Assembly: GCA_965277715.1 (NCBI GenBank)
Contig: OZ255836.1
Location: 4,111,632 to 4,175,631 of the forward strand
From: Gammaproteobacteria bacterium
Lineage (GTDB): Bacteria > Pseudomonadota > Gammaproteobacteria > JBCCGL01
Direction: 5' to 3'
Length of the DNA: 64,000 bases
Part shown: positions 18,232 through 38,310 of the stretch, piece by piece
Numbering within the stretch: position 1 is the first letter of the stretch
Layout of the letters: each line of letters starts with the position of its first letter
Notes under the pieces: generated by a model
The model's database searches: none
What the model saw: only the letters and a program-made list of their open reading frames with translations
Told to the model about the DNA's origin: nothing
Program-made: the position numbers and the translations under genes

Positions 18232-18249
18232 CAAACGTTTCCGCATGAG

Positions 18250-18286: not shown

Positions 18287-18308
18287 GAAACGCAAGAGAG
18301 TCAAAGCC

Positions 18309-18725: not shown

Positions 18726-18847
18726 TGGGGTGTTTGAAATGGGGTTTTATAACGCACGCCAATGGGGTAAACCGTCGTGTTTACCCCGTTTAGAATGGTT
18801 CAGGTGTTAATGACCCAGGTGTTAATGGCCCAGGTGTACTAATGATC

Positions 18848-18863
18848 TGGGCGTACTTTTGCA
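18848..18863 (+). promoter_or_regulatory. sigma54-type -24/-12 promoter upstream of fliD
   Basis: TGGGCG-N5-TTGCA matches GG-N10-GC against the consensus TGGCAC-N5-TTGCW. It lies about 100 nt upstream of fliD. A FleQ-type enhancer-binding protein is encoded in the same cluster. Confidence 0.45.
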
Positions 18864-18961
18864 TCAGCGGGCTGAGACGCCAACAAACCTTTTGCAACAC
18901 ACCTGGCGGATTCGTATAGGTCTCACCGAACAATCAACGTGTGCGCGGTATTTGACGCACA

Positions 18962-20380: not shown

Positions 20381-20459
20381 GTGTCGGTTATGTCTTGCAG
20401 GTGATGACTGAAAACAACCGGTGTTACGCCAACCAAAATAAACGATTAAGAGGACTATT

Positions 20460-20888
20460 ATGAGTGTTACAAACCCAGGTGCGCTGCACGAATATCAACA
20501 GGTGGGGGTTTTTTCTGGCGCGGCCTACGCCGATCCGCACTATTTGATTACCATGCTGATGGAAGGTGCGCTGGAACGCATTGCATTGACCAAAGGAGCG
20601 ATAGCCAAAGGGGATGTGGTGGAAAAAAGTCGATTGATTGGTAATGCCATTACCATTGTGGAAGGGTTAAAGGGGTGCCTGGATTTATCCGTTGGCGGCG
20701 AATTGGCGCAAAACCTGGCAGACCTATACGATTACATGACGCGCCGCTTACTCAATGCCAACCTGAACAACGATATACAGATGCTCGATGAAGTAGCCAG
20801 TTTGTTGCACGAAATAAAAGTCGCCTGGCAGCAGATTCCGCAAGTGCACGAAAAACCCAAAAACCTGGAACGTATGGCGGTGAGATAG
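20460..20888 (+). CDS. fliS: flagellin-specific chaperone FliS
   Basis: 142 aa with FliS-family helices (LLMEGALERI...AIKIVEGLK-like). Position after fliD. Confidence 0.8.
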   Translation: MSVTNPGALHEYQQVGVFSGAAYADPHYLITMLMEGALERIALTKGAIAKGDVVEKSRLIGNAITIVEGLKGCLDLSVGGELAQNLADLYDYMTRRLLNANLNNDIQMLDEVASLLHEIKVAWQQIPQVHEKPKNLERMAVR

Positions 20889-20899
20889 CGTGAAAACAT

Positions 20900-21265
20900 G
20901 TGTTCGATTTACATTTGTTCGATTCAACGGGGGCTTTTAGCTTGAACTACAACGCATTGATCCAGGATATCGTTGACCTAAGCCAACAGATAGAGGATTT
21001 AGCGCAGAGCGACGACTGGCTGTCGATGCAAAACCTCGCCGACCGGCGTATGCGCGGTCTGCACACACTATTCGCCGCATTAGCATTGGATCAGCCTGTA
21101 CAACTGTCGGTGCTGGATTGTAAAAAACTAAACCATGTCCTCGATGCCAACCAACGCATTTTGGCCCATACCCGCCGTCGGCGCGATGCGGTAGTAATGG
21201 CGGTTGCTACACAGCGCGCCGCTACCGCTGCGCAGCGGGCATACACGGCCTGTCCTCAATACTAA
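20900..21265 (+). CDS. hypothetical small flagellar-locus protein at the FliT/FleP position
   Basis: 121-aa helical ORF at the conserved slot between fliS and fleQ. No diagnostic motif. Confidence 0.3.
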   Translation: MFDLHLFDSTGAFSLNYNALIQDIVDLSQQIEDLAQSDDWLSMQNLADRRMRGLHTLFAALALDQPVQLSVLDCKKLNHVLDANQRILAHTRRRRDAVVMAVATQRAATAAQRAYTACPQY

Positions 21266-21539
21266 CAAGCCAAATCTGGTCCTTCCAACGGGTAACAGGG
21301 ATAAATTTGGTGAGAAATATGCGCTAAATTTTTGTAATACTGTTTATTTTGTCTAATATTATAATGAGTTACAAAAAACCTTATATTAGCAATGCCTTGA
21401 ATTCACTGTGCAGCCAGCCCAACGCAGTCTGCATTCGCTTCAGCCGCGTTCGGTAGGCTATCTCCGCCATCCAAGTATGACCGGAAGACCTTCAGAATGT
21501 GAAATTCCAATCGGTAGACCGGTGATACGACACAAATAA

Positions 21540-22997
21540 ATGACCAAAAAAACACTAAAGAAAGTACTTGTAGTTGATATCGATACGGAGCGAACACGAT
21601 CACTGGCCACCTTGCTGAATTTTCTGGACTACAATGCCCAGGTACTCAGTAGCCCCGCACTCTTGCGCGAATTGACAGACCTGGCGGATTACGGCGCCCT
21701 GTTTCTCTATGAATCAAAGCAGGCACTGGCAATTGCTGCAGAGCTTGCCGAGAAATTGAGCCAGTGCCCGCCGTTGGTGCTGGTCGGTGATCACTTTGCC
21801 AATGAGCCGAGTGAAGGGGCACTGCCACCGGGGTTTATCGCCGCCATGAAAACGGACATCAAATACCCCGAGTTGAGCAATTTACTGCACCGTACTGAAC
21901 TCACCGCAAAACAACACAACAAAGACCTGCCACAATCGCTGGAGTTATTCCGCAGCCTGGTGGGCAACAGCCGCACTATCCGTCGTGTGCGCAAAATGAT
22001 CGAACAGGTTGCCAGTACTGAAGCCACTGTCTTGATTTTGGGTGAATCCGGCACGGGTAAAGAAGTGGTTGCGCGCAACATCCACTACTACTCAACACGC
22101 AGAAACAAACCGTTTGTACCCATCAACTGTGGCGCTATTCCCGGTGATCTGCTGGAAAGCGAACTGTTTGGCCATGAAAAGGGAGCGTTTACCGGCGCCT
22201 TGAGTGCCCGTCAGGGGCGTTTTGAACTGGCTGAAGGTGGCACTATCTTTCTCGATGAAATCGGGGATATGCCGTTGAACATGCAAGTCAAATTGTTACG
22301 GGTGATTCAGGAGCGCTCATTTGAGCGCGTTGGCAGCAACCGCAGCATCAAAACCAACGTGCGCATTATCGCGGCAACCCACCGTGACCTGGATGTATTG
22401 ATCGAGCAGGGACAATTCCGTGAAGATTTGTATTATCGACTCAATGTCTTCCCAATCGAAATGCCGGCAATGCGTGATCGACTCGAAGATCTGCCCTTGC
22501 TGGTCAACGAATTAATCACCCGGCTCGAACACGAAAAAAGTGGCTCGGTACGCCTGACGCCCGCCGCAATCGCCACCTTGTGCAACTACCGCTGGCCGGG
22601 CAATGTACGTGAGCTGGCCAACCTGATTGAACGGTTGGCGATTCTCTTCCCCTACGGTGTGGCGGATGTCAAAGACCTGCCCGCCAAAATAGTGCCAACG
22701 CAAACCAGTGGAGAACTTATCCCGCATGATGCAGTGGCGCTTGAGTATCCCGTCACTATGAGCTCAGGGGGCATGGCTAACCTGGAAATCCTCAGTAGTG
22801 AGCCACGCCTGCCGCGTGAGGGCATTGATCTAAAACAACACCTTACCGATATTGAAGTGAGCTTGATTAAGCAAGCCCTCGACGACACCGATTGGGTTGT
22901 CGCGCACTCGGCAAAGCGCCTGCGTATCCGGCGCACCACCCTGGTGGAAAAAATGCGCAAATACAATATCGTGCGGACTGAAGAGCTGTTGTTATAA
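21540..22997 (+). CDS. fleQ: sigma54-dependent flagellar master regulator (FleQ/FlrA-type enhancer-binding protein)
   Basis: It has an N-terminal FleQ/REC-like domain, an AAA+ sigma54-activation domain ([29 protein letters not shown]) and a C-terminal Fis-type HTH. It sits downstream of fliS-fliT, as fleQ does in Pseudomonas. Confidence 0.8.
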
Positions 22998-23768: not shown

Positions 23769-24359
23769 TCACTTTTTCATAAATTCAACAAACACTACAG
23801 CCGAGCCGTTGATAAGAATGCTTTCAACGTCGGATAAGGGTATTTCCGTATTTTCGCTATCAAGCCAGCTCGCCTCCCTGAGTAGAAAATGGCCGCTATG
23901 CGGTTCAGTTGGCCATTCTGAAGGCCAGCCGTATATTCTTCTACCATCATCCAGGTGCAATACAACATAGGTTATATTGTCGGCAAAGGCGCTAAACCAC
24001 TCGGACGCATAAGATGTTTCGCGGGTGATAGCGAGTTTTCTCATCAGCGCGTGAAACTTATCATTGTTTGCAAAATAAGCAAACACTAGACCCAATAGCA
24101 ATGATGTTATTAAGGCGCTGAGTAATTCGGTATTGGTATTCCATTCTATCCATCCGGGGTGTAGGCCCGTTACATTGGCCAGTGCTTTAAACAGAAACCC
24201 TAAACCCTGGATAATAATAGTAAATATGAGTGCTTGAACAACCCGTTCAAAATGGGATTGCTTGGGGTAGGAGGTAAAGGCATAAAAAATCCACGCGGTG
24301 ACGAAGCCGGGCAGCAGATATTGCAATAGTGATATAACACCGGTGTTGATTAAATCCAT
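23769..24359 (-). CDS. hypothetical membrane protein with about 3 N-terminal TM helices and a C-terminal soluble domain
   Basis: 196-aa ORF with hydrophobic helices (LLQYLLPGFVTAWIFYAF, VVQALIFTIIIQGLGFLF, LLSALITSLLLGLVFAYF). It lies in an AT-rich context, divergent from the CHAT gene. No recognisable motif. Confidence 0.4.
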   Translation of the reverse strand: MDLINTGVISLLQYLLPGFVTAWIFYAFTSYPKQSHFERVVQALIFTIIIQGLGFLFKALANVTGLHPGWIEWNTNTELLSALITSLLLGLVFAYFANNDKFHALMRKLAITRETSYASEWFSAFADNITYVVLHLDDGRRIYGWPSEWPTEPHSGHFLLREASWLDSENTEIPLSDVESILINGSAVVFVEFMKK

Positions 24360-24492: not shown

Positions 24493-25962
24493 ATGGAACA
24501 GCACAATATTTTGATACTCGGCGCCAGCCCCTGGAATCTTCACCGGGTTAGCCATGATGTAGAAATTCGTAATATACAAAAAGCCATAAAAAAAAGTAGT
24601 GGCGCAGATGCATTCTCTATCGAAACCAACTCCGCCGCGCAGTATCAGGATTTAGGCGAGGCGGTTTTGGCGCAGCAACCGCATATCCTGCATTTCTGTG
24701 GGCATGGCGGGGGTGATGTGGGGTTGGTTTTTGTGGATGAAGATAACAACGCCCAGCTCGCGGATAACACGGCTATGGAAAAACTCATCCGTATGCTGGG
24801 CAATCATGTGCGCTGTGTGTTTCTCAATGCCTGTTACAGTGAGGTGCAGGCAAAGTTACTAATTCCTCATGTCGACTATGTTATTGGCGTGCAGGGCACA
24901 GTGGGTGATGCCGACGCTCAGGCGTTTAGCACGGCATTTTATGAAAAACTGGGGGCTGGTTACCCGCTTACCTATGCTTTTGAGTTGGCCTACAACGACC
25001 ACTACCACGCCGAGCACTGTCGGCCAGTGTTGCTCAGCCGCAGTGAGCACCGCCTCTACCACAGTGATCTCGATACCCTCAATGAAATAAGCCAACGGTT
25101 GCAAACCGTCACCCCTGGTATTGCCCTCCTGGGCCAGGCGGGCCGTATCAGTGCTGCTTTGCCTCCAGCACTGCGAGCACGGATGCAGGGAACCTTTGGC
25201 CCTGAACGGGTATTAACACTTAGCCCCGTCAGTGACGACAAACAACAAGGTGCATTTTTTGCCCATCTCGCCGAGCAGGCGCAGTCTGATCAGGTCGACT
25301 TTAGCGGGTTAGCAACCGTCTTACAGCACCGGGTGGAAGACGGTAGCCTGCGCTGCCTGTTGCTAGGCCATTTGCAGCGCGGTAGCGCTGAAGAGTCCCG
25401 GCAACTGGCCGAGTTGTTGCGCAATTTATGTGAAGGGGGGCGGTTAAAGGTGGTGATTTACGGTGAGCGAAGACTGCGCGATTTAATGGTGCTTAACGGT
25501 GCGCTATCACCGCTGAATATGTTGGATTCACTCTACCTTGCCGAGTTGGGTGTAGAGGATGTTCTCAAGCTTGAGCCAGAGTTGAAGAGAGAAGAAGCCG
25601 AGGATTTGTTGGCGCTGTCTGGCGGGCACCCACGGCTGTTGCGTGAAGCGCTGTTTTGCTATCGCCAACAACCCAATCTGAATAAGGTAGCCGAGCAGTT
25701 GCAAACTGCGGTCGATGATATTGTCGATCAATGTCTTTGTGATTTTCGGGGGCAGGAGGATAGTATGGTGTTGTTAGCGGATTGCTTGCGTGAAGAACGG
25801 GCGGGTTACCGAGCAGACTTGATAGGTGATGAAGTGTTGGCGGCTTTATATTGGCATAACTTGCTGCGGCAGCAGGGGCATCAGTTGTACTGGCGTTGTA
25901 GTTTATTGCGTGAGACGGTGGAAGCAGTAGCGGCCAGCCTGGCCCGGCGGGCGGGGGTGTGA
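24493..25962 (+). CDS. CHAT-domain (caspase-like, clan CD) peptidase with a C-terminal alpha-helical domain of unknown function
   Basis: The N-terminal ~130 aa carry the CHAT/caspase His-Gly and Cys catalytic dyad in the canonical context (PHILHFCGHGGGD ... VRCVFLNACYSE). The remaining ~330 aa are Leu/Arg-rich and helical. There is no signal peptide. The stop at 25960-62 lies 1 nt before the next gene's GTG start. Confidence 0.7.
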   Translation: MEQHNILILGASPWNLHRVSHDVEIRNIQKAIKKSSGADAFSIETNSAAQYQDLGEAVLAQQPHILHFCGHGGGDVGLVFVDEDNNAQLADNTAMEKLIRMLGNHVRCVFLNACYSEVQAKLLIPHVDYVIGVQGTVGDADAQAFSTAFYEKLGAGYPLTYAFELAYNDHYHAEHCRPVLLSRSEHRLYHSDLDTLNEISQRLQTVTPGIALLGQAGRISAALPPALRARMQGTFGPERVLTLSPVSDDKQQGAFFAHLAEQAQSDQVDFSGLATVLQHRVEDGSLRCLLLGHLQRGSAEESRQLAELLRNLCEGGRLKVVIYGERRLRDLMVLNGALSPLNMLDSLYLAELGVEDVLKLEPELKREEAEDLLALSGGHPRLLREALFCYRQQPNLNKVAEQLQTAVDDIVDQCLCDFRGQEDSMVLLADCLREERAGYRADLIGDEVLAALYWHNLLRQQGHQLYWRCSLLRETVEAVAASLARRAGV

Positions 25963-25963
25963 T

Positions 25964-28900
25964 GTGCAGTTGAGACTTAGCGTGGCGTTACGCTACGGCT
26001 TACTATTGGGTTTGTGTGTGGGGTGGCTGCCGTTGGGGGTAGTGGCGGATGCTGTGCGACCGGCTTTGGTGCCTGCGGGTGAGCAGTTGGCTAGTGGTGA
26101 AGGGGCGTTGGATAGTTTGGCTCGGCGTTTGAATACACGCTTGGGCACTGTCCATCACGCGGCCTTCAGCCCGCAGGGAGATCGCATCGTTACGGCATCG
26201 AGTGATAACACTGCGCGGCTGTGGAATGCAGACAATGGCGAACTGATTGTGGTGCTTGAGGGGCATACGGATTGGGTTAATCACGCGGCTTTCAGCCCGC
26301 AGGGAGATCGAATCGTTACGGCATCGGATGATAATACTGCGCGGTTATGGAACGCAGACAATGGCGAACTGATTGCGGTGCTTGAGGGGCATACGGGCAG
26401 AGTTTATCACGCGGCCTTCAGCCCGCAGGGAGATCGCATCGTTACGGCATCGGGTGATGATACTGCGCGGCTGTGGAACGCAGACGATGGTGAACTGATC
26501 GATGTGCTTAAGGGGCATACGGATTGGGTTAATCACGCGGCTTTCAGTCCACAGGGAGATCGAATCGTTACGGCATCGGATGATAATACTGCGCGGTTAT
26601 GGAACGCAGACAATGGCGAACTGATTGCGGTGCTTGAGGGGCATACGGGCAGAGTTTATCACGCGGCCTTCAGCCCGCAGGGAGATCGCATCGTTACGGC
26701 ATCGGGTGATGATACTGCGCGGCTGTGGAACGCAGACGATGGTGAACTGATCGATGTGCTTAAGGGGCATACGGATTGGGTTAATCACGCGGCTTTCAGT
26801 CCACAGGGAGATCGAATCGTTACGGCATCGGATGATAATACTGCGCGGTTATGGAACGCAGACAATGGCGAACTGATTGCGGTGCTTGAGGGGCATACGG
26901 GCAGAGTTTATCACGCGGCCTTCAGCCCGCAGGGAGATCGCATCGTTACGGCATCGGGTGATGATACTGCGCGGCTGTGGAACGCAGACGATGGTGAACT
27001 GATCGATGTGCTTAAGGGGCATACGGATTGGGTTAATCACGCGGCTTTCAGTCCACAGGGAGATCGAATCGTTACGGCATCGGATGATAATACTGCGCGG
27101 TTATGGAACGCAGACAATGGCGAACTGATTGCGGTGCTTGAGGGGCATACGGGCAGAGTTTATCACGCGGCCTTCAGCCCGCAGGGAGATCGCATCGTTA
27201 CGGCGTCGAGAGATAACACTGCGCGGCTGTGGAACGCGGGCGATGGCGAACTGATCGCGGTGCTTGAGGGGCATACGGGCAGAGTTTATCACGCGGCTTT
27301 CAGCCCGCAGGGAGATCGCATCGTTACGGCATCGAGAGATAACACTGCGCGGCTGTGGAATGCAGACAATGGCGAACTGATTGTGGTGCTTGAGGGGCAT
27401 ACGAGTTGGGTTTATCACGCGGCCTTCAGCCCGCAGGGAGATCGCATCGTTACGGCATCGAGAGATAACACTGCGCGGCTGTGGAATGCAGACAATGGCG
27501 AACTGATTGTGGTGCTTGAGGGGCATAGGAATAGGTTTTATCACGCGGCCTTCAGCCCGCAGGGAGATCGCATCGTTACGGTATCGGGTGATGATACTGC
27601 GCGGCTGTGGAATGCAGACGATGGTGAACTGATCGATGTGCTTAAGGGGCATACGGATTGGGTTAATCACGCGGCTTTCAGTCCACAGGGAGATCGAATC
27701 GTTACGGCATCGGGAGATAACACTGCGCGGCTGTGGAATGCAGACAATGGCGAACTGATTGTGGTGCTTGAGGGGCATAGGAATAGGGTTTCTCACGCGG
27801 CCTTCAGCCCGCAGGGAGATCGCATCGTTACGGCATCGGGTGATGATACTGCGCGGCTGTGGAATGCAGACAATGGCGAACTGATTGCGGTGCTTGAGGG
27901 GCATAGGAATAGGGTTTCTCACGCGGCCTTCAGCCCGCAGGGAGATCGTATCGTTACGGCATCTAGGGGTAAGACTGTGCGGCTGTGGAGCGCAGACGAT
28001 GGCGAACTGATCGCGGTGTTTGAGGGGCATACGGATCGGGTTACTCACGCAGCCTTCAGCCCGCAGGGTAATCGCATTGTCACCGCCTCATTCGATGGCA
28101 GTATAAGACTATGGGACACAGATACAGCTAAACCGCTACGGCTTATGGTGGCCACCAGCAACGGCCAATGGCTAAACTGCCAGGCGAACGGCCATTGCTT
28201 ACGCCACGACGATGGCACATTGTTTTGGCCGCCTCTACCTCCCCAGGCCACAGGCGGTAAACTGAGCCTGGAAAATCTGCCCGAGGCGACAATCGACACC
28301 TGTATGTCGCTGCCTTGCGAGCCACGCGACTTTGTTGTCGGGATTCGCAATACCGGCACCGCGCCACTCTATTGGCTACAAGTGGTCTCGGCAGAAAGCG
28401 GCCCTGTCTCACTGTCATTACCCCCACCGCCGTTACCGCCATTGCACCCCGATGATCATGTTGAGCTAAGCATACGCCTGGCCAGCGTAGCACCCACACA
28501 GCAACCCCAGCGCCAAAACACCAGTATAAAATTGGCTATTCGCCACGCCCATGGCGAATTACCAATAGACCTGCCAGTAACCGTGCGCACCCCAGAGATT
28601 ACTCTGCTGGAAGCCAGCCTGACAGAAAACCGCGAAACCATCGCAGTGCAGGTGAGTAACCACGGCGGGGTTTCACTATCCCAGGCGGTTGCAGAGGCCG
28701 CCATCAATGGCCAGGCGATACCCGGTAGCCTTAACCTTCCAGTGCTTCCGGGCAATATGTCGAAACCACAACAATTGGCTTTTACGGCGCCCGCAGATTT
28801 TAACTACCCGGACGACACTGAGTTCACTTTGCAGTTGCGCAACGCCAACTACCCCCATTATCAGTGGACACTCAAACACCCGCTCACCCTGCCCTGGCAA

Positions 28901-30586
28901 CTCTATACCTTGCTGGCAGCACTGATTCTGGTGCTTGGCGGGCTGGCCTGGTTTGTCGGTGTGCGCTGGCATCCACTGGTGCGGCTGGCGGTTAATCAAG
29001 GCCCCACCGCGCTGGCACTGCCCCAGCTGGGCCAGGCGCGCCGCTGGCTGCAACGCGCCCGCCTGTGGCGGGATACCGTGCAGGCGCAAGGGCTGGCAGC
29101 GCGCTGGCAAAGCGCCGAGGCGTTTTTGGCCTGCCCTGACCCGGTGCAGCAAATCGAACAACTGGCCGGGCGTTTACAGGCCGAGGTGTTGCCCGCGAAT
29201 GAGGCTACCCCCACCTGGCTGGCCACCTTGCGTCTTAACGAAGGCTTTATCCTGCGCTTACCACAGTGCACGGTGGCGCTGCCCGGCGCCGATCATTCTA
29301 TCGACCAGATCACCACTCAGCTACGCCGTTGCGAAGGTGTATGCCTGCTAATCACCACAGACCCGGATCAACAGGCCGCGCTGCGCGCCGACCGCCAGGC
29401 CACCTGGGTGATACCGGACAACCAGGCTTTGGTGCGCCTATGGCTGGCAGCGGCGGATAAGGTTAACGATCAACTGGCCTCTATTATCGCCGAGCAGGTC
29501 GATACCCGTAGCCTTTCGCCCTGGCGCACTGGTCACGGTATGGAGGATATGACGATGTTTTTTGGCCGCGACCAGTTACTGCGCGATATCCTCGAACGAC
29601 CACCGCGTAACTACCTGCTGGTTGGGGCGCGGCAGCTGGGTAAAACCAGTCTGCTGCAAAAACTGCAACATCTCTGCGATCAGCGCGATACATTGCGTGG
29701 CTTTAAAATCTCGCTGGGCTCCGGCCATTTTGCCATCGATTTGCAACGCATCGCTGGGCAGTTGGCGTTGGCGCGCAACGCCTCTTTGCCAGACATTCTC
29801 ACTGCGTTGGCGCACCCGCCCGCCGGGATCCATCACTGGTTGTTAGTCGACGAGGCCGACGAGCTGGCGGGCAACCACACCCCGGAAAATGCAGCGGTTT
29901 TAGATCAAATGCGCAACCTGAGCGCCGAGGGCCGCTGTCATTTTATCCTCGCCGGGTTTTGGGGCCTGTACCGTGAGGCGATACTGGAGTACCAATCAAA
30001 ACTGAAAAACTTTGGTGACCTGCTGCTGTTGGATGCTCTGGAAGACAAGGCCAGCCGGGCGCTACTCACCCGGCCTATGCACGCCTTGCAGATTCACTAC
30101 CAGGATGACACCCTGGTAACGCGGATTCTGCACGAGACCGGCGGGCGCACTAATTTGCTGGCTATTGTCGCCGATGACCTGGTGCGCCGACTTGGCAATC
30201 AACGCCGGGTGATTACCGATGAAGATATCAGCGAAGTGCTAAACGATGCGGTGTTTCAGGATCGCCTGCTCGACTGGAAAACACTATCAGGGAATATACT
30301 AGATCAAATACTGGTATACGCTAGTATCGACCTCAACCCACTAGAGCAGGGTTTTACCGAGGCTGAATTATGGCAACGGTTGGATGAATTGGGAGACGAA
30401 GTATCCGATGATGCCGTACAAAATTCGCTGATTCGTTTACGGCTGGGATTTATCATCAAACGCGTTGGTGGACGTTACTACTATCGCGTGCCCGTGCAAG
30501 TACAGCAAATCCTCGACAGCGAACCGGAGCGTGCCTTGCGTAGATTGCTCAATTCTTTAGTCGGTGATATATCGAAACAATGTTGA
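25964..30586 (+). CDS. giant multidomain protein: signal peptide or anchor, then about 16 WD40 repeats, beta-rich linker domains, a single TM helix, then a cytoplasmic STAND/AAA_16-like P-loop NTPase with a C-terminal winged-helix
   Basis: N-terminal hydrophobic leader (LRYGLLLGLCVGWLPLGVVA). 16 units of a 42-aa WD40-like blade (HAAFSPQGDRIVTASxDNTARLWNADxGELIAVLEGHTxxV). A TM helix (LYTLLAALILVLGGLAWFVGVRW, nt ~28897-28970). Then FFGRDQLLRDILERPPRNYLLVGARQLGKTSLL, which is the FxGR-x(n)-GxxxxGKT/S pattern typical of STAND/AAA_16 ATPases. Walker B HHWLLVDEADEL. C-terminal wH-like RLRLGFIIKRVGGRYYYRVP. GTG start coupled to the CHAT gene. Confidence 0.75.
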   Translation: MQLRLSVALRYGLLLGLCVGWLPLGVVADAVRPALVPAGEQLASGEGALDSLARRLNTRLGTVHHAAFSPQGDRIVTASSDNTARLWNADNGELIVVLEGHTDWVNHAAFSPQGDRIVTASDDNTARLWNADNGELIAVLEGHTGRVYHAAFSPQGDRIVTASGDDTARLWNADDGELIDVLKGHTDWVNHAAFSPQGDRIVTASDDNTARLWNADNGELIAVLEGHTGRVYHAAFSPQGDRIVTASGDDTARLWNADDGELIDVLKGHTDWVNHAAFSPQGDRIVTASDDNTARLWNADNGELIAVLEGHTGRVYHAAFSPQGDRIVTASGDDTARLWNADDGELIDVLKGHTDWVNHAAFSPQGDRIVTASDDNTARLWNADNGELIAVLEGHTGRVYHAAFSPQGDRIVTASRDNTARLWNAGDGELIAVLEGHTGRVYHAAFSPQGDRIVTASRDNTARLWNADNGELIVVLEGHTSWVYHAAFSPQGDRIVTASRDNTARLWNADNGELIVVLEGHRNRFYHAAFSPQGDRIVTVSGDDTARLWNADDGELIDVLKGHTDWVNHAAFSPQGDRIVTASGDNTARLWNADNGELIVVLEGHRNRVSHAAFSPQGDRIVTASGDDTARLWNADNGELIAVLEGHRNRVSHAAFSPQGDRIVTASRGKTVRLWSADDGELIAVFEGHTDRVTHAAFSPQGNRIVTASFDGSIRLWDTDTAKPLRLMVATSNGQWLNCQANGHCLRHDDGTLFWPPLPPQATGGKLSLENLPEATIDTCMSLPCEPRDFVVGIRNTGTAPLYWLQVVSAESGPVSLSLPPPPLPPLHPDDHVELSIRLASVAPTQQPQRQNTSIKLAIRHAHGELPIDLPVTVRTPEITLLEASLTENRETIAVQVSNHGGVSLSQAVAEAAINGQAIPGSLNLPVLPGNMSKPQQLAFTAPADFNYPDDTEFTLQLRNANYPHYQWTLKHPLTLPWQLYTLLAALILVLGGLAWFVGVRWHPLVRLAVNQGPTALALPQLGQARRWLQRARLWRDTVQAQGLAARWQSAEAFLACPDPVQQIEQLAGRLQAEVLPANEATPTWLATLRLNEGFILRLPQCTVALPGADHSIDQITTQLRRCEGVCLLITTDPDQQAALRADRQATWVIPDNQALVRLWLAAADKVNDQLASIIAEQVDTRSLSPWRTGHGMEDMTMFFGRDQLLRDILERPPRNYLLVGARQLGKTSLLQKLQHLCDQRDTLRGFKISLGSGHFAIDLQRIAGQLALARNASLPDILTALAHPPAGIHHWLLVDEADELAGNHTPENAAVLDQMRNLSAEGRCHFILAGFWGLYREAILEYQSKLKNFGDLLLLDALEDKASRALLTRPMHALQIHYQDDTLVTRILHETGGRTNLLAIVADDLVRRLGNQRRVITDEDISEVLNDAVFQDRLLDWKTLSGNILDQILVYASIDLNPLEQGFTEAELWQRLDELGDEVSDDAVQNSLIRLRLGFIIKRVGGRYYYRVPVQVQQILDSEPERALRRLLNSLVGDISKQC
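26140..28120 (+). repeat. intragenic tandem DNA repeats (126-bp WD40 unit; 252-bp super-unit) with near-100% nucleotide identity
   Basis: At least three perfect 252-bp copies lie between about 26280 and 27100. The minus-strand ORFs 26345-26536, 26597-26788 and 26849-27040 have identical translations at exact 252-bp spacing. About 10 further, slightly diverged 126-bp units follow. Confidence 0.9.
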
Positions 30587-30708
30587 GGAGCGCATAACGG
30601 TAGACTGTAAGCGCCCTTAAATCAGCCTCTATTCCAAGGTAATGTCCAAAACGACATTCCAAGGTAGCAAGGCCTCTATCTTTTCAAGGAAAAAAAAAGA
30701 AAAAAAAA

Positions 30709-30806
30709 GGGGTCAAGGCAGTTATTTCCTATATTTCTTGCTGGAAATCACTGTTTTTATCCGTATTAGTCGTTGTATGGTGAATAATAAGCCTGACCCC
30801 CTTGCT
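30709..30806. mobile_element. MITE-like ~95-bp repeat element, copy 1 (short GGGGTCA terminal inverted repeats)
   Basis: AAAAAGGGGTCAAGGCAGTTATTTCCTATATTTCTTGCTGGAAA(T/C)CACTGTTTTTATCCGTATTAGTCGTTGTATGGTGAATAATAAGCCTGACCCCCTTGCTTTT. It recurs almost identically at 34784 and 37611. Its ends are inverted (GGGGTCAAG ... CCTGACCCC). Confidence 0.55.
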
Positions 30807-31187
30807 TTTAGGCTACGCAAAATTAGCCACAGCAGAAATACAATACCAGCGAGCTGGATGGTTATACCGAGAACAGCATTCATAAGGGGTTTCTCCAGAT
30901 TACGCCGGGGGAACCTCCTTCCCTGCCGGGAAGAAAAACCCCGGCAGGGTGGTTAAAACAAAATAAAAACAAAAAATAATGGGCTGCTTCTTTTGAGAGA
31001 CCAGCTATCTCTTAGGGCATACCTATCGGCAACGCCCTGACACTGACCGGGGTCAGCAATAAGTAGAAACCAAGATAGCGTGTCCTGCTAGAACGGGCAG
31101 TGAAGAAGATGGCAGTTTTTAACACCTATCGCACCGCCACAAAAATACACTGGTACTACCCTGATATTTTTATCTGGTGGCAATGTT

Positions 31188-31772
31188 ATGGCATCTAAAA
31201 CCCCCTATTCTCGTCCAACCTTTGAACAATCTTTTACGCTGCACAGCCTTCAGGCCCAGCGGGTGGTGCAACGGGTGCTGAGGCGTACCGTACACGCCTT
31301 ATACGGCATTGAAGTAATTTTACGGATTATTGGGGATGAAAAAGCCATTGACGAAGTGGACGGCATTATCCGGGACGCGGTAACTCATGCCGCCAGCGAA
31401 CTGGAGCAGGAACAAAGCCGACTGAATCTTTTAATGGAAGAAAACGGCATTGATGAGACGCCAAACTATACCCACCCGTACACCTTTACGGCCAAAATCA
31501 GTTCGCCGCAAATCGGTCAGTTTATAGGACTGATACGCAAACTGGATGCCGTGATGATTGCCCGTGATACGCTTTGGTTAACCGGGGTTATCAGCAATCA
31601 ACAGAGGGCAGATGGGAATTTTGATGGGCAGCAAAAACTTACCCTGCTGGCACGGCATATTATTGATATTGAAACGCGAGCAAGGCAATCGGCGAATAGC
31701 CAAGGTAAGCAGGAAGAAGTGGAGGCGGTGGTGCCGGTGATGGAGGAAGTACTGGAAGCTGAAGAAGATTGA
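31188..31772 (+). CDS. hypothetical protein (island-encoded)
   Basis: 194-aa ORF in the AT-rich island. It has an acidic C-terminus (EEVEAVVPVMEEVLEAEED). No motif I can name with confidence. Confidence 0.35.
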   Translation: MASKTPYSRPTFEQSFTLHSLQAQRVVQRVLRRTVHALYGIEVILRIIGDEKAIDEVDGIIRDAVTHAASELEQEQSRLNLLMEENGIDETPNYTHPYTFTAKISSPQIGQFIGLIRKLDAVMIARDTLWLTGVISNQQRADGNFDGQQKLTLLARHIIDIETRARQSANSQGKQEEVEAVVPVMEEVLEAEED

Positions 31773-31937: not shown

Positions 31938-33122
31938 TTATTCAGCGGTACAGCTAATCGTTTTGTTAGTCCACGGAGCACCATTCCAAGAATCTTCGAC
32001 TCCTGGAGAAACTCGGCTTAATAGTTCATCAGATACTTCGCCGTCTCCACCACATTGCTCAAAACTAGTCTGCACACCATGTACGAATAGGCTTGCAGAA
32101 TCTCCACAAAGCACTGGCTTATCAATTGATGTCAGCACTGAGCTAGAGAGAAGTACTAACCTGTACACAGGGTTCAGATAGGCATCGAAACCTGGAATGA
32201 TATACTGTCCAGCTGGCAATTGAGCAAAGCGTCGAAAACCGGTAAGGGTTTGAAACGCTATCATGTCAGAAGCAGCCCGCTGTGCAAATGTTTCTAATAC
32301 ACCGTCATCCTCCCAATCTGTAATTGGGTTTGAATGAAGCGCTTCGACTTGACGGGCAGCACATCTGTCCGCATTGATTTCATTCGGGTTTGGATTGGAT
32401 GCACAAAACAAATCGTTCGAGGTTTGGAGAGCCAGGATGTGTTGAAACAAGCCAGACGTTTCCATACGCGACTTTGTGCTTACGGGGCACTTTTCGTTGT
32501 TAATGTGATACGTCTCATGACCCACCAGTGAGGCCAGATTGAACGCCATTATGCGATTTTGAATAACTGCTATTCTGCGTAGATTAGCTGAAACATTGTT
32601 CTGCTCAATGCCTTGAAATTGATTGTCAATGAACGTGCGAAGTGGCTCTTGCATCGCCGCAACGTTATCTGCATGAACGGTCTCGTCTGCATATCCGAAC
32701 GCCAGTTTGACAGGACGGTCAAACGCAATTCGAAATGACTCATAGTCTGGGTAAGCGCCTTGAACAAATTGTATTGCATACCAGCTTGCTACCATGTTCA
32801 TTCGCTGGAAGGCTGATTGGCGACAGAACATCTTCCCAGGTATTGCTGCGCAAACTGTATCAGGCATGCTGTCATTGCAAACTGCTCTTCGGATTTTCAA
32901 ATCCAGTTTTTCACTACCACCTTTTAGAATCGAAGTTAATTGAATCATACTTATGTGTTGCCAATTCGACCCGCCAAATGTTTCCTCGTGACAGATTGAA
33001 AGTTCAATCTCTGCATTTACCCGTTGAACTGACAATATTTGCACAATCGCAACAAAAAGCAGAATTGCTCTTGAGCTAATCATTTCAGTGCACCAATTAA
33101 TGTGTCGAGTACCCCCTCGCAA
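31938..33122 (-). CDS. hypothetical secreted protein with an HExxH zinc-metallopeptidase-like motif
   Basis: 394 aa. N-terminal signal peptide (ILLFVAIVQILSVQRVNA). HETYH motif (LASLVGHETYHINNEKC). Low GC. Confidence 0.35.
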   Translation of the reverse strand: MRGGTRHINWCTEMISSRAILLFVAIVQILSVQRVNAEIELSICHEETFGGSNWQHISMIQLTSILKGGSEKLDLKIRRAVCNDSMPDTVCAAIPGKMFCRQSAFQRMNMVASWYAIQFVQGAYPDYESFRIAFDRPVKLAFGYADETVHADNVAAMQEPLRTFIDNQFQGIEQNNVSANLRRIAVIQNRIMAFNLASLVGHETYHINNEKCPVSTKSRMETSGLFQHILALQTSNDLFCASNPNPNEINADRCAARQVEALHSNPITDWEDDGVLETFAQRAASDMIAFQTLTGFRRFAQLPAGQYIIPGFDAYLNPVYRLVLLSSSVLTSIDKPVLCGDSASLFVHGVQTSFEQCGGDGEVSDELLSRVSPGVEDSWNGAPWTNKTISCTAE

Positions 33123-33451
33123 TTACCAACATGTATCTGGACGGCGCTTGTCAGCCCCTGTAAGTCTTGATTTGGCAATTGGCTTAAGCTTTTTGTTCGT
33201 TTTAAGCTGGTCAGACAGTTTTCAACCGGGCCGACTTGTAAGCTTGCCAATTTGCTTACTCTTTCTCCACCTGGAGGAAATGCAACAGCAAGAGTCACCC
33301 CAGCAGTTAAAAACGCCGATAGAATTGTCCATACATAGGTTCGCTTCTTCCACTTGTCCTCAAGGGCCAGCTTCAGTTTCTCCAACTCAAATTTGGCATT
33401 TTCTAAGTCAGGTTGATTGTCCATCAGCTTAAGGTTCTTAGGTCTGACCAC
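33080..33451 (-). CDS. hypothetical small membrane-anchored protein
   Basis: 123 aa with an N-terminal coiled/charged region and then one TM helix (VWTILSAFLTAGVTLAVAF). It overlaps the neighbouring genes in an operon-like arrangement. Confidence 0.3.
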   Translation of the reverse strand: MVRPKNLKLMDNQPDLENAKFELEKLKLALEDKWKKRTYVWTILSAFLTAGVTLAVAFPPGGERVSKLASLQVGPVENCLTSLKRTKSLSQLPNQDLQGLTSAVQIHVGNCEGVLDTLIGALK

Positions 33452-33983
33452 ATTTTAGTGCCGCATCCAGGTTATCCTGCAAACCTGCTATATCCCAGGT
33501 TTCCAGCAAATCTCTAATAAGAGTAGGATCAAGCTCTGTGCCATCTTTTTTTAGGTAATACACCGACGTACGAGCACGTTCACGATTGATATCCACCTTA
33601 TAAGTTAATTCAAAAACTCCTTCGATATTATCACCGGTTGCGTGAAAAAAAATACTGCCAAGGGTTTTCTCGCGCCTCGGCAAAACCAAACCCTTCAAAT
33701 TCGTCCAGGCCACAAAAACGCTTTCTATTTTGTCTGTACAGTCAGCCAACTTTGGGATAAAACGGTTTTGAAAATAGGATGTCTGATCAAAGCCACCGCC
33801 GATACCTGGATCTTCAGGATCAGGTGCTGCGTCCAGTGATGAGACCGCCCCGATACTTGTCAACGCAGTTTTTGAGGTATTATCAGCAAGTGCAAGACCT
33901 ACATTGGCAAGTAAGCTGATAGTCAACACGACCAGAAGACAAGGAATGTTCAACATAGATATTTTTTCAATTCGTTTGAACAA
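33438..33983 (-). CDS. hypothetical secreted protein
   Basis: 181 aa with a signal peptide (MLNIPCLLVVLTISLLANVGLALA). First gene of a three-gene minus-strand cluster. Confidence 0.35.
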   Translation of the reverse strand: MFKRIEKISMLNIPCLLVVLTISLLANVGLALADNTSKTALTSIGAVSSLDAAPDPEDPGIGGGFDQTSYFQNRFIPKLADCTDKIESVFVAWTNLKGLVLPRREKTLGSIFFHATGDNIEGVFELTYKVDINRERARTSVYYLKKDGTELDPTLIRDLLETWDIAGLQDNLDAALKCGQT

Positions 33984-34369
33984 CTAATTATAACTTAACT
34001 ATTTTGTTTCTGTAGGCCCAAATTATTAACATGTGTTGTAAAAACCAAAGTTCGGTAGACGGTAAGTATACAGTTGTATTTAACCCTAATTCTTAGATAG
34101 GAACGTTTAAAGGTTATTGGGAAATGCTTTAATGGCCTGTGACGATTTGGTTTGCTATATTGTGTATAAATATACTTTTAGCTTTGCTATACCATCAAAA
34201 TTAAATTGTTTACTCAACAATATGGTTCCCGATGTGCTCGTACTTCAGGTGTGGCTGACCAAGCATGGAAAAATAAATATGCAAAGAGTTTACAGCAACA
34301 AGTGATTGTTTTCATTCAATTACGAGGCGAGCCATATGTTAATCATTTGCGTTTTGAAGGCTGAAAGTT

Positions 34370-35105
34370 GTGACTGATTTCTTGTTTAAGCACAGCACCA
34401 CGGTTGGCCAGCCCGGCTATTTTTTGCATGGTTTGTTATTAGACGGAAACCCCACATTCAGTGAAGGCGTGTACAGGCTTAACCATTGGGCCGTGCGCTT
34501 AGGCCGCGATGCGCATTCAGATGAAGCCCGCATGGCTTCTTTGCACGAAATGTATCATGCGACATTGAACGACAGTACTGCATACGGAACGTTAATGCAT
34601 GTGGTGGGATTATTTTGCCGCACCTATCCAGAAGAGAACCAATGGCCGAATCTTTTGCAGGCGCTTATCGACTCAGCGTTGCGCTGCCATGAAACCTATG
34701 CAACCTACGCGTCTGTATTTGTTGTTGGTAAAGGCTCGCCGAACAGAGCTGTGCTCGAACAGTATCCTGAAAGTCATTAAAAGGGGTCAAGACAGTTATT
34801 TCCTATATTTCTTGCTGGAAACCACTGTTTTTATCCGTATTAGTCGTTGTATGGTGAATAATAAGCCTGACCCCCTTGCTTTTCAAATTATGCGGGCGCA
34901 TGCGAATCTCACTGGTGCAGATGCTGATGGTTGGCTGACATCTCGTCAGGTTGCTGGATATCATCATGACGTATTTGCAACATATGGATTACCTGCCAGG
35001 ACTTTTGGTGGAACGCCAATAACAAGCGCTTTGTGGGAGTCAAACATTAATTTTGGAGGTTTTTTGGGCTACCGATATTGGTGTGATGGATGTGCTTCTC
35101 AATGA
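34370..35105 (+). pseudogene. hypothetical HExxH-motif gene disrupted by a MITE insertion
   Basis: The ORF 34370-34780 (contains LHEMYHATLND) stops exactly at the MITE border. The reading frame resumes after the element in a different frame (34884-35105: QIMRAHANLTGADADGW...). A ~97-bp insertion accounts for the +1 frame change. Confidence 0.45.
34784..34878. mobile_element. MITE-like ~95-bp repeat element, copy 2 (inserted in a coding sequence)
   Basis: Near-identical to copies 1 and 3 (GGGGTCAAGACAGTTATTTCC ... AAGCCTGACCCCCTTGC). Confidence 0.55.
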
Positions 35106-35806
35106 ATGGGCGTAGTTTACTGATTAGTTGTTTTTTTGTATTGCTTACAGCTATTTCGGTTGGCACGTATGCTTTTGACGTAGAAGAAATGAAACTGACA
35201 CTTGGTGAGCACCAATTAAGTATTCCAAAAAGCAATATTATTGATCCCAATGTACCGTTCTGGCTGCGTTTAATTCCGGGTTTAGCTCCCAGCACTGGAG
35301 AGATTCTGCTCTTGATAGATGCAGAAGATATTGCTAATCAGGTCGAGGGGTATCAAGCGTATGATGGCGAGTTAAAAAACAATATACATTTGCGTATATC
35401 AGTGCTTGATGTGAACGCGTTAAATCAAATTTTAGACCCTCAAATGCATGTCTATAGCGATGCTTGGTATGGGCGGGGATTATTGGAAGGTCGTACTATA
35501 GAGCTGCATGAGAAGTCTAGATTTTATAAGCTGTACAGAGGAGATGACACATTTTGGACAGCTGTAAAAATTTCACCTGATGCTTCTCAGCCTATACCTG
35601 ACGATCCTTTTGCTTTTTGGGTTGCAAGTTGTCATAAAGGAGAAGCTCCATTGACGAAATCAGGCTTTATAACAAGTTGTCTCACCAAGATGGTATATGA
35701 CAATCTTCTTTTGGATTTTAGTTTAAATGGAATAAATTTAGGTGTAGTAGATGGTGTGAAGACTATGCTGTCTCGCCAGCTTTTATTATGGAAAAATCAG
35801 AAATAA
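35090..35806 (+). CDS. hypothetical secreted protein
   Basis: 238-aa ORF with an N-terminal signal sequence (LLISCFFVLLTAISVGTYA). AT-rich codon usage. No known motif. Confidence 0.35.
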   Translation: MCFSMNGRSLLISCFFVLLTAISVGTYAFDVEEMKLTLGEHQLSIPKSNIIDPNVPFWLRLIPGLAPSTGEILLLIDAEDIANQVEGYQAYDGELKNNIHLRISVLDVNALNQILDPQMHVYSDAWYGRGLLEGRTIELHEKSRFYKLYRGDDTFWTAVKISPDASQPIPDDPFAFWVASCHKGEAPLTKSGFITSCLTKMVYDNLLLDFSLNGINLGVVDGVKTMLSRQLLLWKNQK

Positions 35807-36042
35807 AAATAAACATTTAGTTGAATGTCAAAACTGAGTTCAAAATCCCTAGCGGCTTGCTAGGGCTTTTTTGCTTTTACTCTTCGCTAGTCAACACCAA
35901 ACACCCGTCCATCACTCTGACCTTCACTGGCGAATCAATCTCAAATCCCGCTTTGATTAACCAATGGCCTTTGAGGTGAATCTCGCCAATGGGTGTGCGC
36001 TGTCGGCAGTTCTGGCTGAAATAAAAGGAAAAGGGGTCAGGC

Positions 36043-37611: not shown

Positions 37612-37706
37612 GGTCAAGGCAGTTATTTCCTATATTTCTTGCTGGAAACCACTGTTTTTATCCGTATTAGTCGTTGTATGGTGAATAATAAGCCTGACCC
37701 TCTTGC
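37611..37706. mobile_element. MITE-like ~95-bp repeat element, copy 3, abutting the IS4 right end
   Basis: GGGTCAAGGCAGTTATTTCCTATATTTCTTGCTGGAAACCACTG ... AAGCCTGACCCTCTTGC. It is followed by the short CCTCCCTTG x3 repeat. Confidence 0.55.
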
Positions 37707-37782
37707 CTCCCTTGCCTCCCTTGCTTTCTAATAGTAATCTCCAAAGTGCACACGGTGATAATCGGACTACACGCAGAGGAGG

Positions 37783-38310
37783 TTGTTTTGTTTATTGGGG
37801 AGGGCCGAGATGTTGAATTTATGTAGAACACTTCAATCTTTATTTCTATTTTTTGGGGCAAGTTATATATCCGTGTGTGATGCTGAACTGAACAAAAAAT
37901 ATGAAAAAGTCATCGATAAAAATATTCTTGGGCAAGAAATAGCCACTCTCTACGATAAATTTGGTTACCTTAAACTTGAAGTTGACAATGAATATGCCGA
38001 TCTAGATAGGTTAGAAAGATATTGGTTGGCTATAGACTCACATTATGAGTTTCTAACCTTGCGTACAATAAATGATCTTGTTGTAGAAGTAATCATTCGA
38101 AACCCGGACATAAAGACTGAGCGCGGAATAACAGTTGGAAAAAAACTGGATGAGTTTATCAAGTCTTATCCAGATGCAAATAAGCTTAACACGTACACAA
38201 GTGGTATAAAGAGGCAGTTAATCGCTTATTGTGTTGAGAGTGAGAAACTAGAGGTAGAGTTTTACGAAGGTAAGATATTCGTTTTGAAAATTCTCGATGA
38301 ATGTCATTGA
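37783..38310 (+). CDS. hypothetical secreted protein
   Basis: 175-aa ORF with a signal-like N-terminus (LQSLFLFFGASYISVCDA). AT-rich. Confidence 0.3.
   Translation: MFCLLGRAEMLNLCRTLQSLFLFFGASYISVCDAELNKKYEKVIDKNILGQEIATLYDKFGYLKLEVDNEYADLDRLERYWLAIDSHYEFLTLRTINDLVVEVIIRNPDIKTERGITVGKKLDEFIKSYPDANKLNTYTSGIKRQLIAYCVESEKLEVEFYEGKIFVLKILDECH

Follow-up and report, generated by a model that had tools for sequence, protein, structure and literature searches.

The window (the whole stretch of DNA analysed, 64 000 nt) carries two adjacent forward-strand genes between positions 24493 and 30586. The larger, at 25964–30586 (+), is one intact ORF encoding 1540 aa from a GTG start at 25964. The public gene call places the start at the GTG at 25982 (1534 aa), and its product (P0152) is 100 % identical; a second word-indexed homologue search, made with the alignment, gained little beyond this public gene call of the window itself. 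The product consists, in order, of a leader, 16 WD40 units, a Cys-pair hairpin, two Ig-like domains, a transmembrane (TM) helix, a restriction-endonuclease-fold domain, an nSTAND1-type NTPase and a winged helix. Very probably it is a receptor that spans the membrane, its sixteen WD40 blades being periplasmic and its STAND-type ATPase cytoplasmic, and it is a candidate sensor of threats outside the cytoplasm. An NCBIfam scan gave no meaningful match, and a promoter and terminator scan performed equal to or below its level on shuffled sequence. Two downstream ORFs (30642–30956 and 31188–31772) were rejected as further components, having no Pfam or PADLOC match and no counterparts in related loci.

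Domain anatomy of the receptor and its partner

The WD40 array occupies 26138–28153 (+; residues 59–730) and consists of 16 units of exactly 42 aa each. A 16-blade array had been proposed in the initial annotation of this DNA, and this count is borne out by Pfam (16 WD40 stretches), by TRF (126 bp period, 15.3 copies) and by direct inspection of the units. Units 3, 5 and 7 are 100 % identical to one another at the DNA level, as are units 4, 6 and 8, giving three identical 252 bp blocks; an assembly error in blocks of this kind is possible and could alter the blade count. Among solved structures, 2ymu is the nearest in sequence (E 1.5e-155), and the WD40 domain of Apaf-1 is among the best PDB matches. 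Variation between repeats is concentrated at unit codons 2, 3, 4, 6, 22, 24, 33, 38 and 41, with nonsynonymous changes confined to codons 2, 3, 6, 33, 38 and 41. From general WD40 structure, most of these positions map to the D–A and B–C loops on the top face of the propeller.

The array is followed at 28154–28888 (+) by a Cys-clamped beta-hairpin (WLNCQANGHCLRHDDG, 28169–28216, +; motif W..C..C.R.DDG), a second Cys pair (28301–28318, +) and two Ig-like beta-sandwich domains. The mature ectodomain contains exactly four Cys residues, which form these two local pairs, and the W..C..C.R.DDG hairpin recurs in 42 representatives of the family. An AF2 model (m62404553fabd; mean pLDDT 91.5) has strands over model residues 1–243, for which Foldseek returned Ig-like sandwiches. 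This region had been described as a beta-rich, Pro-rich linker of some 250 aa; it is instead modelled as a folded module of hairpin and two Ig-like sandwiches, with block-mean pLDDT values of 73–94.

C-terminal to the TM helix, a juxtamembrane module at 28970–29503 (+) comprises a helical bundle (residues 1003–1072) and an alpha/beta domain of restriction-endonuclease fold (residues ~1073–1180). The conserved catalytic D...(D/E)xK residues of PD-(D/E)xK nucleases are absent from this domain, and it was therefore rejected as an intrinsic nuclease effector. The P-loop NTPase core lies at 29540–30043 (+), with Walker A GARQLGKTS at 29624–29650 (+; residues 1221–1229, K1227) and Walker B WLLVDEAD at 29837–29860 (+; residues 1292–1299). 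Its GxRxxGK, DExD and R residues are invariant across 61 sequences, and the NTPase is likely to be active, judging from these residues and the modelled fold. The label AAA_16, given to this domain in the initial annotation, is better replaced by nSTAND1: the Pfam model PF20703 scores 37.3 bits against a gathering cut-off of 27.1 (E 3.3e-9), a match that covers only profile positions 10–233 of 379, and the AAA_22 and AAA_16 matches are weaker. One relative (P0094) also exceeds the nSTAND1 threshold, at 27.6 bits; the other non-WD40 relatives scanned match AAA_22/AAA_14-type models only, which marks this as a divergent subfamily.

The receptor is completed at 30044–30583 (+) by helical domains and, at its C-terminus, a winged helix (GFIIKRVGGRYYYRVPV, 30446–30496, +), as delimited by AF2 secondary structure and by Foldseek alignments co-linear with 2qen and 2fna. 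These two archaeal Walker-type ATPases are the top Foldseek matches for the NTPase, followed by Orc1/Cdc6 (target-normalised TM-scores 0.62–0.64). The module thus has the sequence and fold features by which STAND proteins, as defined by Leipe et al. (2004), are recognised: a Walker A, an acidic Walker B, helical and winged-helix domains, and a fold of the STAND/ORC branch. That definition also includes oligomerisation dependent on ligand and NTP, which is proposed for the receptor below. Sequence searches of the PDB with the C-terminal part of the receptor gave no matches; in a profile search of the PDB with the receptor alignment (A3), WD40 matches dominated.

The smaller gene, at 24493–25962 (+), was left out of the initial annotation and is added here from ORF, Pfam and PADLOC evidence. 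It encodes 489 aa, and its stop codon (25960–25962) ends one base before the receptor GTG at 25964. The N-terminal part is a CHAT (caspase-fold) domain at 24535–25020 (+; residues 15–176), which exceeds the Pfam threshold (36.4 bits against a cut-off of 24; E 5.2e-9) and matches the PADLOC ‘chat’ model (E 8.5e-8). Inspection assigns a candidate catalytic His motif, FCGHGG (24694–24711, +), and a candidate catalytic Cys motif, LNACYS (24823–24840, +; Cys114), which would together supply the His–Cys dyad of such a protease.

The remainder, at 25063–25959 (+; residues ~191–489), is an adaptor domain that appears to be a paralogue of the NTPase, helical and winged-helix module of the receptor. The position of the P-loop is taken by ALLGQAGRIS here and by LLLAQA in the family consensus. 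The adaptor alignment (A5) matched the receptor alignment with an hhalign probability of 92 % (E 6.7e-7, 254 columns), and a separate run against the receptor NTPase module gave 94 % (E 1.2e-7), so that homology is very probable at the level of profile comparison; a shallow alignment of four sequences gave just 26 %. Pfam returned one weak AAA_35 match for the adaptor domain, and a PDB sequence search with the adaptor gave none.

Membrane topology

Topology was assessed by hydropathy and comparative evidence. Only two segments of the whole receptor exceed 1.2 in a 19-residue Kyte–Doolittle scan, residues 1–30 (peak 2.03) and 972–1006 (peak 2.38), in agreement with the hydrophobic leader and single later TM helix recognised at the outset. 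The leader (25964–26050, +; residues 1–29) resembles a Sec-type signal peptide on inspection, with two Arg in the n-region, a 17 aa h-region (YGLLLGLCVGWLPLGVV) and A-D-A ahead of the predicted cleavage site at V30. If it is cleaved the receptor is a type I membrane protein; as an uncleaved anchor it would give the same topology. Among relatives that start with Met and whose ectodomain measures 150 aa or more, a signal-like N-terminal h-region was found heuristically in 71 of 98. Most of the negative ones begin within a WD40 or Ig unit and are therefore taken to be truncated gene calls. Two family members carry lipoboxes. The leader is followed by a conserved motif, PALVPAGEQ (26060–26086, +; family consensus PP[LI]VPEGE), which lies within the first 90 residues in 28 representatives.

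The TM helix is located at 28895–28966 (+; residues 978–1001, WQLYTLLAALILVLGGLAWFVGVR) and is followed by a conserved (R)HPLV motif. The interval originally assigned to the extracytoplasmic part, 25964–28920, does contain all of it, yet also takes in the first third of this helix and ends inside it. In the AF2 model an isolated helix of 24 residues (model residues 248–271) lies between the beta and alpha/beta modules. All 60 aligned relatives, about 30 % identical, have a hydrophobic segment at the position of the helix; across these, columns 982–998 contain no charged residue, aromatic belts are present at both ends, and Arg occurs at 999 and 1002, on the NTPase side, in about 65 % of sequences. 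Lys plus Arg in the 15-residue flanks average 1.2 before and 2.3 after the helix across relatives.

At the position of the WD40 array, other family members carry NHL, TPR or, in one case, Reg_prop+Y_Y_Y domains, the last of which is the periplasmic sensor module of hybrid two-component systems. Because the NTPase needs cytoplasmic NTP and there is a single internal TM helix, the N-terminal part should lie outside the cytoplasm. The conserved TM helix, the leaders, the swapped ectodomains and the Cys pairs all point the same way, and the original prediction of periplasmic propellers and a cytoplasmic NTPase is strongly supported at the sequence level.

Family, gene pairing and alternative readings

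The receptor belongs to a large family. With a limit of E<1e-3 an exhaustive profile search yielded 6602 representatives, and with E<1e-30 it yielded 872 clusters, the 150 best matches all scoring below E 1e-126; a hydrophobic segment lies 180–330 aa N-terminal to Walker A in 124 of 151 representatives. This overturned a reading of the family as rare, which had come from three proteins found in a word-indexed search with the C-terminal 591 aa. The 25 genome loci are in diderm bacteria throughout, with sulfur bacteria in the majority, and no relatives were found in plasmid collections or viral contigs. As to literature on the architecture, no description was found, and passing mentions concern only ‘transmembrane STAND ATPases’ and extracellular WD40 in orthocaspases.

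The gene pair is conserved, and its effector domain is exchanged between loci. Apart from the window, HMM matches place an adaptor upstream of the receptor in 16 of the 18 testable genome loci; in only two is it absent within 10 kb. Conversely, a receptor lies directly downstream in 69 of 80 metagenome loci found via the adaptor. The adaptor N-terminal domain is interchangeable across loci, being CHAT, TIR, Trypsin_2, TM or HTH. An XRE-type HTH occupies this position in 74 of the 80 metagenome loci, a sample biased towards that type by its five HTH-type seed sequences, and HTH-type adaptors occur in five genome loci. An upstream fragment at one locus (L001) was rejected as an adaptor. Gaps of 1.5–2 kb between adaptor and receptor in some loci were considered as sites of a third component and rejected, as they hold unrelated inserted genes or frameshifts.

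With a probability of about 0.6, the two proteins encoded at 24493–30586 form a system for signalling and conflict that acts across the envelope. The receptor would be a bitopic inner-membrane protein, its 16-blade array standing in the periplasm atop two Ig-like stalk domains. A ligand in the periplasm or at the cell surface may bind the propellers on their variable top face and so cluster the receptors, and clustering together with ATP would cause the cytoplasmic NTPase modules to oligomerise. The inactive paralogue, acting as adaptor, might then co-assemble with these NTPases, gathering the CHAT domains and switching on proteolysis, probably with growth arrest or death as the outcome. Sensing of phage or of envelope damage across the envelope, as first suggested for this protein, is plausible. 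A defence role is put forward as a proposal only, given that PADLOC (PADLOC-DB v2) returned no defence model for the receptor (the sole match, local to the P-loop, was PDC-S01 at E 0.019; the partner matched generic ‘chat’ models) and that relatives are absent from the phage and plasmid collections.

The broader reading, somewhat short of an even chance, is that the receptor would be the first example of a widespread class of trans-envelope pattern-recognition receptors combining an NLR/STAND engine with a topology like that of TLRs or sensor kinases. Periplasmic ligands such as phage ejection or tail proteins, predators or an envelope breach would be sensed ahead of events in the cytoplasm or without regard to them. 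‘Decoy’ adaptors with an inactive STAND would then co-assemble in a templated manner and deliver swappable outputs, among them a caspase-like protease, TIR, trypsin, a pore/TM domain or a transcription factor.

The same topology may also serve a transducer of envelope or environmental signals outside immunity, built on the plan of a sensor kinase with a STAND NTPase in place of the kinase. Its input might be envelope state, cell–cell contact within filaments or a nutrient polymer, and its output would be delivered by the adaptor, which in most members is a transcription factor and in this case a protease. Classical STANDs, MalT among them, regulate transcription, and the predominance of HTH adaptors suggests that the family overall may serve signalling in general rather than immunity, with the reservation that the metagenome sample was HTH-seeded. 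Receptors paired with HTH adaptors have, in 56 of 64 cases, a TM1, a loop of ~130–145 aa and a TM2, like classical sensors; the Reg_prop+Y_Y_Y ectodomain of one member and the null results for PADLOC, phages and plasmids fit this reading as well. However, a CHAT protease is the partner in the window, TIR or TM domains, both typical of effectors of death or conflict, accompany other receptors whose ectodomain is of WD40 type, and the recently duplicated WD40 units focus their nonsynonymous variation on the surface, as is typical of arms-race receptors. We consider a non-immune role for the window pair unlikely.

Hypervariable propellers could alternatively detect non-self surface proteins on conspecific cells and set off death through the CHAT protease, in the manner of fungal HET-E/NWD WD40 NLRs. 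Fungal HET-E-type repeats are highly conserved internally and vary at few positions, a pattern shared by the 42 aa units here, and an extracytoplasmic sensor in a family concentrated in filamentous or aggregate-forming sulfur bacteria suits contact sensing. In a diderm, however, the sensor sits beneath the outer membrane, where contact with the surface of another cell is hard to envisage, and no polymorphic partner gene is evident beside the system, the downstream ORFs being unconserved in other loci; such allorecognition or kin discrimination is highly improbable. Least probable is that the hydrophobic segments are not membrane-inserted, leaving a soluble STAND of permuted order with cytoplasmic propellers, or that the array is an assembly artefact or pseudogene: the three identical 252 bp blocks could reflect mis-assembly, but the textbook TM features in 60/60 relatives, leaders in 71/98, Reg_prop+Y_Y_Y at the WD40 position elsewhere in the family, the isolated 24-residue helix of the AF2 model, and an ORF intact over 4.6 kb in exact 42 aa register and called identically in the public 4.29 Mb assembly all argue against it.

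Comparison with known systems

The triggers of those bacterial STAND/NLR-like immune sensors that have been studied are, to our knowledge, detected within the cytoplasm. If a periplasmic sensor is indeed coupled to a cytoplasmic NTPase here, the STAND engine has also been adapted to trans-membrane sensing, in a hybrid of NLR and TLR logic, and the receptor offers a concrete candidate for the question of whether bacteria recognise attackers at the envelope. An effector carried on an inactive copy of the receptor NTPase suggests a testable principle of recruitment, in which paralogues co-assemble and outputs are modular. With 16 near-identical WD40 units, whose variation is focused on the surface, and a CHAT protease, the pair in the window lends itself, as a compact set of two genes, to heterologous reconstitution.

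KAP NTPases have TM helices inserted within the NTPase domain. In the receptor about 220 aa separate the TM helix from the Walker A motif that follows it, and no helix interrupts the NTPase core, which sets it apart from that family. Association with the membrane, a P-loop NTPase and a link to conflict systems are common to both (PMC8195603 cites KAP). Canonical STAND/NLR proteins with WD40 repeats (Apaf-1, Avs, bNACHT and the nSTAND1 conflict systems; Kaur et al. 2021, PMC8195603) share with the receptor a P-loop NTPase, helical and winged-helix domains and a WD40 propeller sensor, and have in common with the system an association with caspase-like, TIR or trypsin effectors. In contrast to their C-terminal repeats, those of the receptor (residues 59–730) precede the NOD (residue 1193 onward), as had been pointed out, and the TM helix at 978–1001 parts the predicted periplasmic repeats from it. 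The effector resides on a separate inactive paralogue rather than being fused to the active NTPase. The tripartite NLR/Apaf-1 arrangement of a soluble protein with effector, NOD and C-terminal repeats is thus not that of the receptor.

The upstream protein, with an N-terminal effector and an inactive STAND-like domain, has the make-up of an iSTAND component as described for the MoxR–vWA ternary systems (Kaur et al. 2020, PMC7159879), in whose iSTAND proteins a STAND-like module without catalytic activity likewise follows an effector of caspase-like, TIR or trypsin type. The constant partner here, in contrast, is a membrane-bound active STAND; no MoxR or vWA domain was found among the scanned neighbouring ORFs, and the locus is not a MoxR–vWA ternary system. 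Cyanobacterial orthocaspases of p20-(AAA_16/NACHT)-TM-WD40 architecture (reviewed in PMC7475262) are alike in architecture, uniting a caspase-fold protease with a STAND-type NTPase, a TM segment and WD40 repeats predicted to be extracellular. There, protease, NTPase, TM and C-terminal WD40 follow one another in a single polypeptide, whereas the WD40 array described here comes first, after a signal-peptide-like leader, and a second protein, the adaptor, carries the protease.

In overall plan the receptor agrees with sensor histidine kinases, hybrid two-component systems and PknD-type kinases, in which a leader or TM1, a periplasmic sensor and a TM helix precede a cytoplasmic engine. Reg_prop+Y_Y_Y sensors occur in the hybrid two-component systems (HTCS) of Bacteroides, and NHL propellers in PknD of M. 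tuberculosis. In the receptor a STAND NTPase takes the place of the kinase as engine, and the output would pass through a paralogous adaptor rather than by phosphotransfer. By analogy, the system also resembles Toll-like receptors and plant receptor-like proteins, in which an extracytoplasmic repeat sensor and a single TM helix are joined to an oligomerisation-driven module that recruits adaptor-effectors, which in some members of the present family include TIR; the sensors and engines are non-homologous, and the likeness appears to be one of function.

Domain anatomy of the receptor

The receptor is encoded by a single intact ORF on the + strand (25964–30586, 1540 aa), the GTG start of which lies one base past the stop codon of the upstream ORF (24493–25962). 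In a public assembly (4.29 Mb contig) the same protein starts at GTG 25982 and has 1534 aa; the hydrophobic leader is kept with either start. A WD40 array, leader, later hydrophobic segment and NTPase had been placed within this ORF by the initial annotation, and all are borne out. Pfam finds 16 WD40 stretches, TRF reports a 126 bp period, and direct dissection resolves the array into 16 units, each exactly 42 residues long (residues 59–730), a blade count that holds only if the perfect repeats are correctly assembled. In a 19-residue hydropathy scan of all 1540 residues, just two segments are hydrophobic, 1–30 (peak 2.03) and approximately 972–1006 (peak 2.38). The C-terminal 810 residues match nSTAND1 (37.3 bits, Pfam threshold 27.1) and, more weakly, AAA_22 and AAA_16; the Walker A and B motifs are GARQLGKTS and LLVDEAD.

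An AlphaFold2 model of residues 731–1540, built from a 61-sequence alignment, is confident (mean pLDDT 91.5, pTM 0.71). The region between the array and the TM helix is beta-rich, as had been proposed, yet is not the mere linker it was taken for: a beta-hairpin is followed by two Ig-like beta-sandwiches, then an isolated 24-residue helix (978–1001) and a C-terminal cytoplasmic module. For the beta part, Foldseek returns generic Ig-like sandwiches; for the NTPase together with the helical and winged-helix domains, it returns archaeal Walker-type ATPases (2qen, 2fna) and Orc1/Cdc6. Directly after the predicted signal peptide, 28 family representatives carry a PP[LI]VPEGE motif, the window version being PALVPAGEQ (26060–26086, residues 33–41); it might serve in propeller closure or docking onto the stalk.

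Within the array, WD40 units 3, 5 and 7 share 100 % DNA identity, as do units 4, 6 and 8, and a 252 bp two-unit block is present three times in tandem (approximately 26390–27145); units 2 and 4 share 98 % identity. Either the array expanded very recently or the triple block may be an assembly error. Differences between units are clustered in codons 2, 3, 4, 6, 22, 24, 33, 38 and 41, with exclusively nonsynonymous changes in codons 2, 3, 6, 33, 38 and 41. In the WD40 fold, most of these positions fall in the D–A and B–C loops of the ligand-binding top face. The repeats of fungal HET-E-type NLRs show the same pattern of variation. The nearest solved sequence is 2ymu, a highly repetitive Nostoc WD40 protein, and PkwA and Apaf-1 likewise rank high among such matches.

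Topology of the receptor

An exhaustive profile search retrieved 6602 cluster representatives with E<1e-3, of which 872 fall below 1e-30; the 150 top-scoring ones are all below E 1e-126 and typically align all the way from the linker to the C-terminus. In 124 of 151 representatives, Walker A is preceded by a hydrophobic segment at a distance of 180–330 residues. In the 61-sequence alignment, TM columns 982–998 combine low residue identity with uniform hydrophobicity and hold no charged residues, aromatics occupy both ends (W978/Y981 and Y996/Y997), and ~65 % of sequences then have Arg at 999 and 1002. TM hydropathy exceeds the 1.6 threshold in 60/60 sequences, and mean K+R rises from 1.2 in the 15 residues preceding the helix to 2.3 after it, in keeping with the positive-inside rule. 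Of the relatives that begin with Met and have an ectodomain of ≥150 aa, 71/98 show a signal-like h-region; the failures point to truncated gene calls, because most start inside a WD40 or Ig unit. Two family members carry lipoboxes.

In other members NHL propellers, TPRs or Reg_prop+Y_Y_Y replace the WD40 array at the same position; hybrid two-component systems use Reg_prop+Y_Y_Y as their periplasmic sensor. In the window receptor, the mature ectodomain contains exactly four Cys, which form two local pairs, while the 16 blades are free of Cys, and a W..C..C.R.DDG hairpin is found in 42 representatives; the Cys pattern and recurrent hairpin fit an oxidising compartment. All genome hits of the family are in diderm bacteria. 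As the NTPase has to face the cytoplasm, the N-terminal 950 residues are therefore very probably periplasmic. The earlier prediction of extracytoplasmic propellers and a cytoplasmic NTPase is strongly supported by the TM helix, leaders, K+R bias, Cys pairs and hosts, and the topology is the same whether the leader is cleaved or uncleaved.

The CHAT-adaptor and a proposed signalling role

The upstream ORF encodes an adaptor whose N-terminal CHAT domain exceeds the Pfam threshold (His in FCGHGG, Cys in LNACYS) and whose ~300 C-terminal residues match AAA_35 weakly. Of the 18 related genome loci having upstream sequence, 16 encode this C-terminal domain right before the receptor gene, with an N-terminal domain that differs among loci (CHAT, TIR, Trypsin_2, a TM segment or an XRE-type HTH). 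Reciprocally, starting from adaptor homologues, the receptor NTPase gene is directly downstream in 69/80 metagenome loci; 7 of the other 11 have <1.6 kb of downstream sequence. Profile–profile comparison aligns the adaptor domain with the receptor NTPase module over 254 co-linear columns (probability 92 %, E 6.7e-7; 94 % in a second run), the probability being only 26 % with a shallow 4-sequence alignment. Judged from these profiles, the conserved domain is a predicted paralogue of the NTPase, helical and winged-helix module, with an LLLAQA-type sequence in place of the P-loop.

In the metagenome sample, which the search seed biased towards HTH-type adaptors, 56/64 receptors consist of TM1, a loop of ~130–145 residues and TM2; in general plan the family therefore resembles a sensor kinase in which a STAND NTPase serves as the engine. 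These contigs (L027–L106) hold a large sub-family pairing an XRE-type HTH-adaptor with a receptor of this short periplasmic loop, which suggests a transcriptional-output variant of the same system.

Binding of a periplasmic ligand to the variable propeller face would cluster receptors, and clustering with ATP would oligomerise the cytoplasmic NTPase modules. Co-assembly of the P-loop-less paralogue may then bring CHAT domains into proximity and activate proteolysis. In small numbers, WD40 ectodomains are paired with CHAT, TIR or TM effectors, and NHL and short-loop types with HTH; the former pairing speaks for a conflict or immune role in the case of the window system. Taken as a whole, the family could serve trans-envelope signalling more generally. 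PADLOC does not recognise the receptor, and no relatives were found in plasmid or viral collections.

Genomic setting and known systems

The locus is chromosomal. Upstream is a flagellar cluster (14401–22997) encoding a Maf-type flagellin glycosyltransferase, flagellin, FliD and a FleQ-like sigma-54 activator; that locus L009 likewise has a FleQ-like homologue (tblastn, 37 % identity) close to its related system is probably a coincidence. A divergent DUF6338 membrane protein gene (23769–24359, minus strand) just upstream of the adaptor gene was not found beside the system in other loci. Downstream of the receptor, two small + strand ORFs (30642–30956 and 31188–31772) have no Pfam or PADLOC match and no counterpart in related loci, and are probably outside the system. 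A stretch of 41–44 % GC (32000–40000), versus ~52 % elsewhere, is probably an acquired island adjoining the system; it contains an IS4-type DDE transposase (36108–37553, minus), a DUF4288 protein (38895–39356, minus) and several ORFs without a Pfam match, and beyond it lie Opp transporter genes and mfd. Elsewhere, the WD40 ectodomain and TM–NTPase part are in different frames in Lamprocystis purpurea (L004, 7907–10070) and the receptor is split in a Desulfobacterales MAG (L022, 9484–10046); both are frameshifts, pseudogenes or repeat-assembly errors.

Our literature search did not find a description of this architecture, namely signal peptide, WD40, Ig-like, TM, restriction-endonuclease-like domain and nSTAND1 (defined by Kaur et al. 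2021, PMC8195603), paired with an effector-iSTAND adaptor (iSTAND defined by Kaur et al. 2020, PMC7159879). Extracellular WD40 repeats are predicted for cyanobacterial orthocaspases of the order p20, AAA_16/NACHT, TM, WD40 (2020 review, PMC7475262), and some STAND targets of diversity-generating retroelements are predicted to have periplasmic C-type-lectin sensors (Doré et al.). A 2025 preprint names 'transmembrane STAND ATPases' among sensors, with no further detail. Unlike in the iSTAND systems of Kaur et al. (2020), no MoxR–vWA partner was found among the neighbouring ORFs scanned around the window system; its adaptor shares the 'grammar' of the iSTAND proteins described there.
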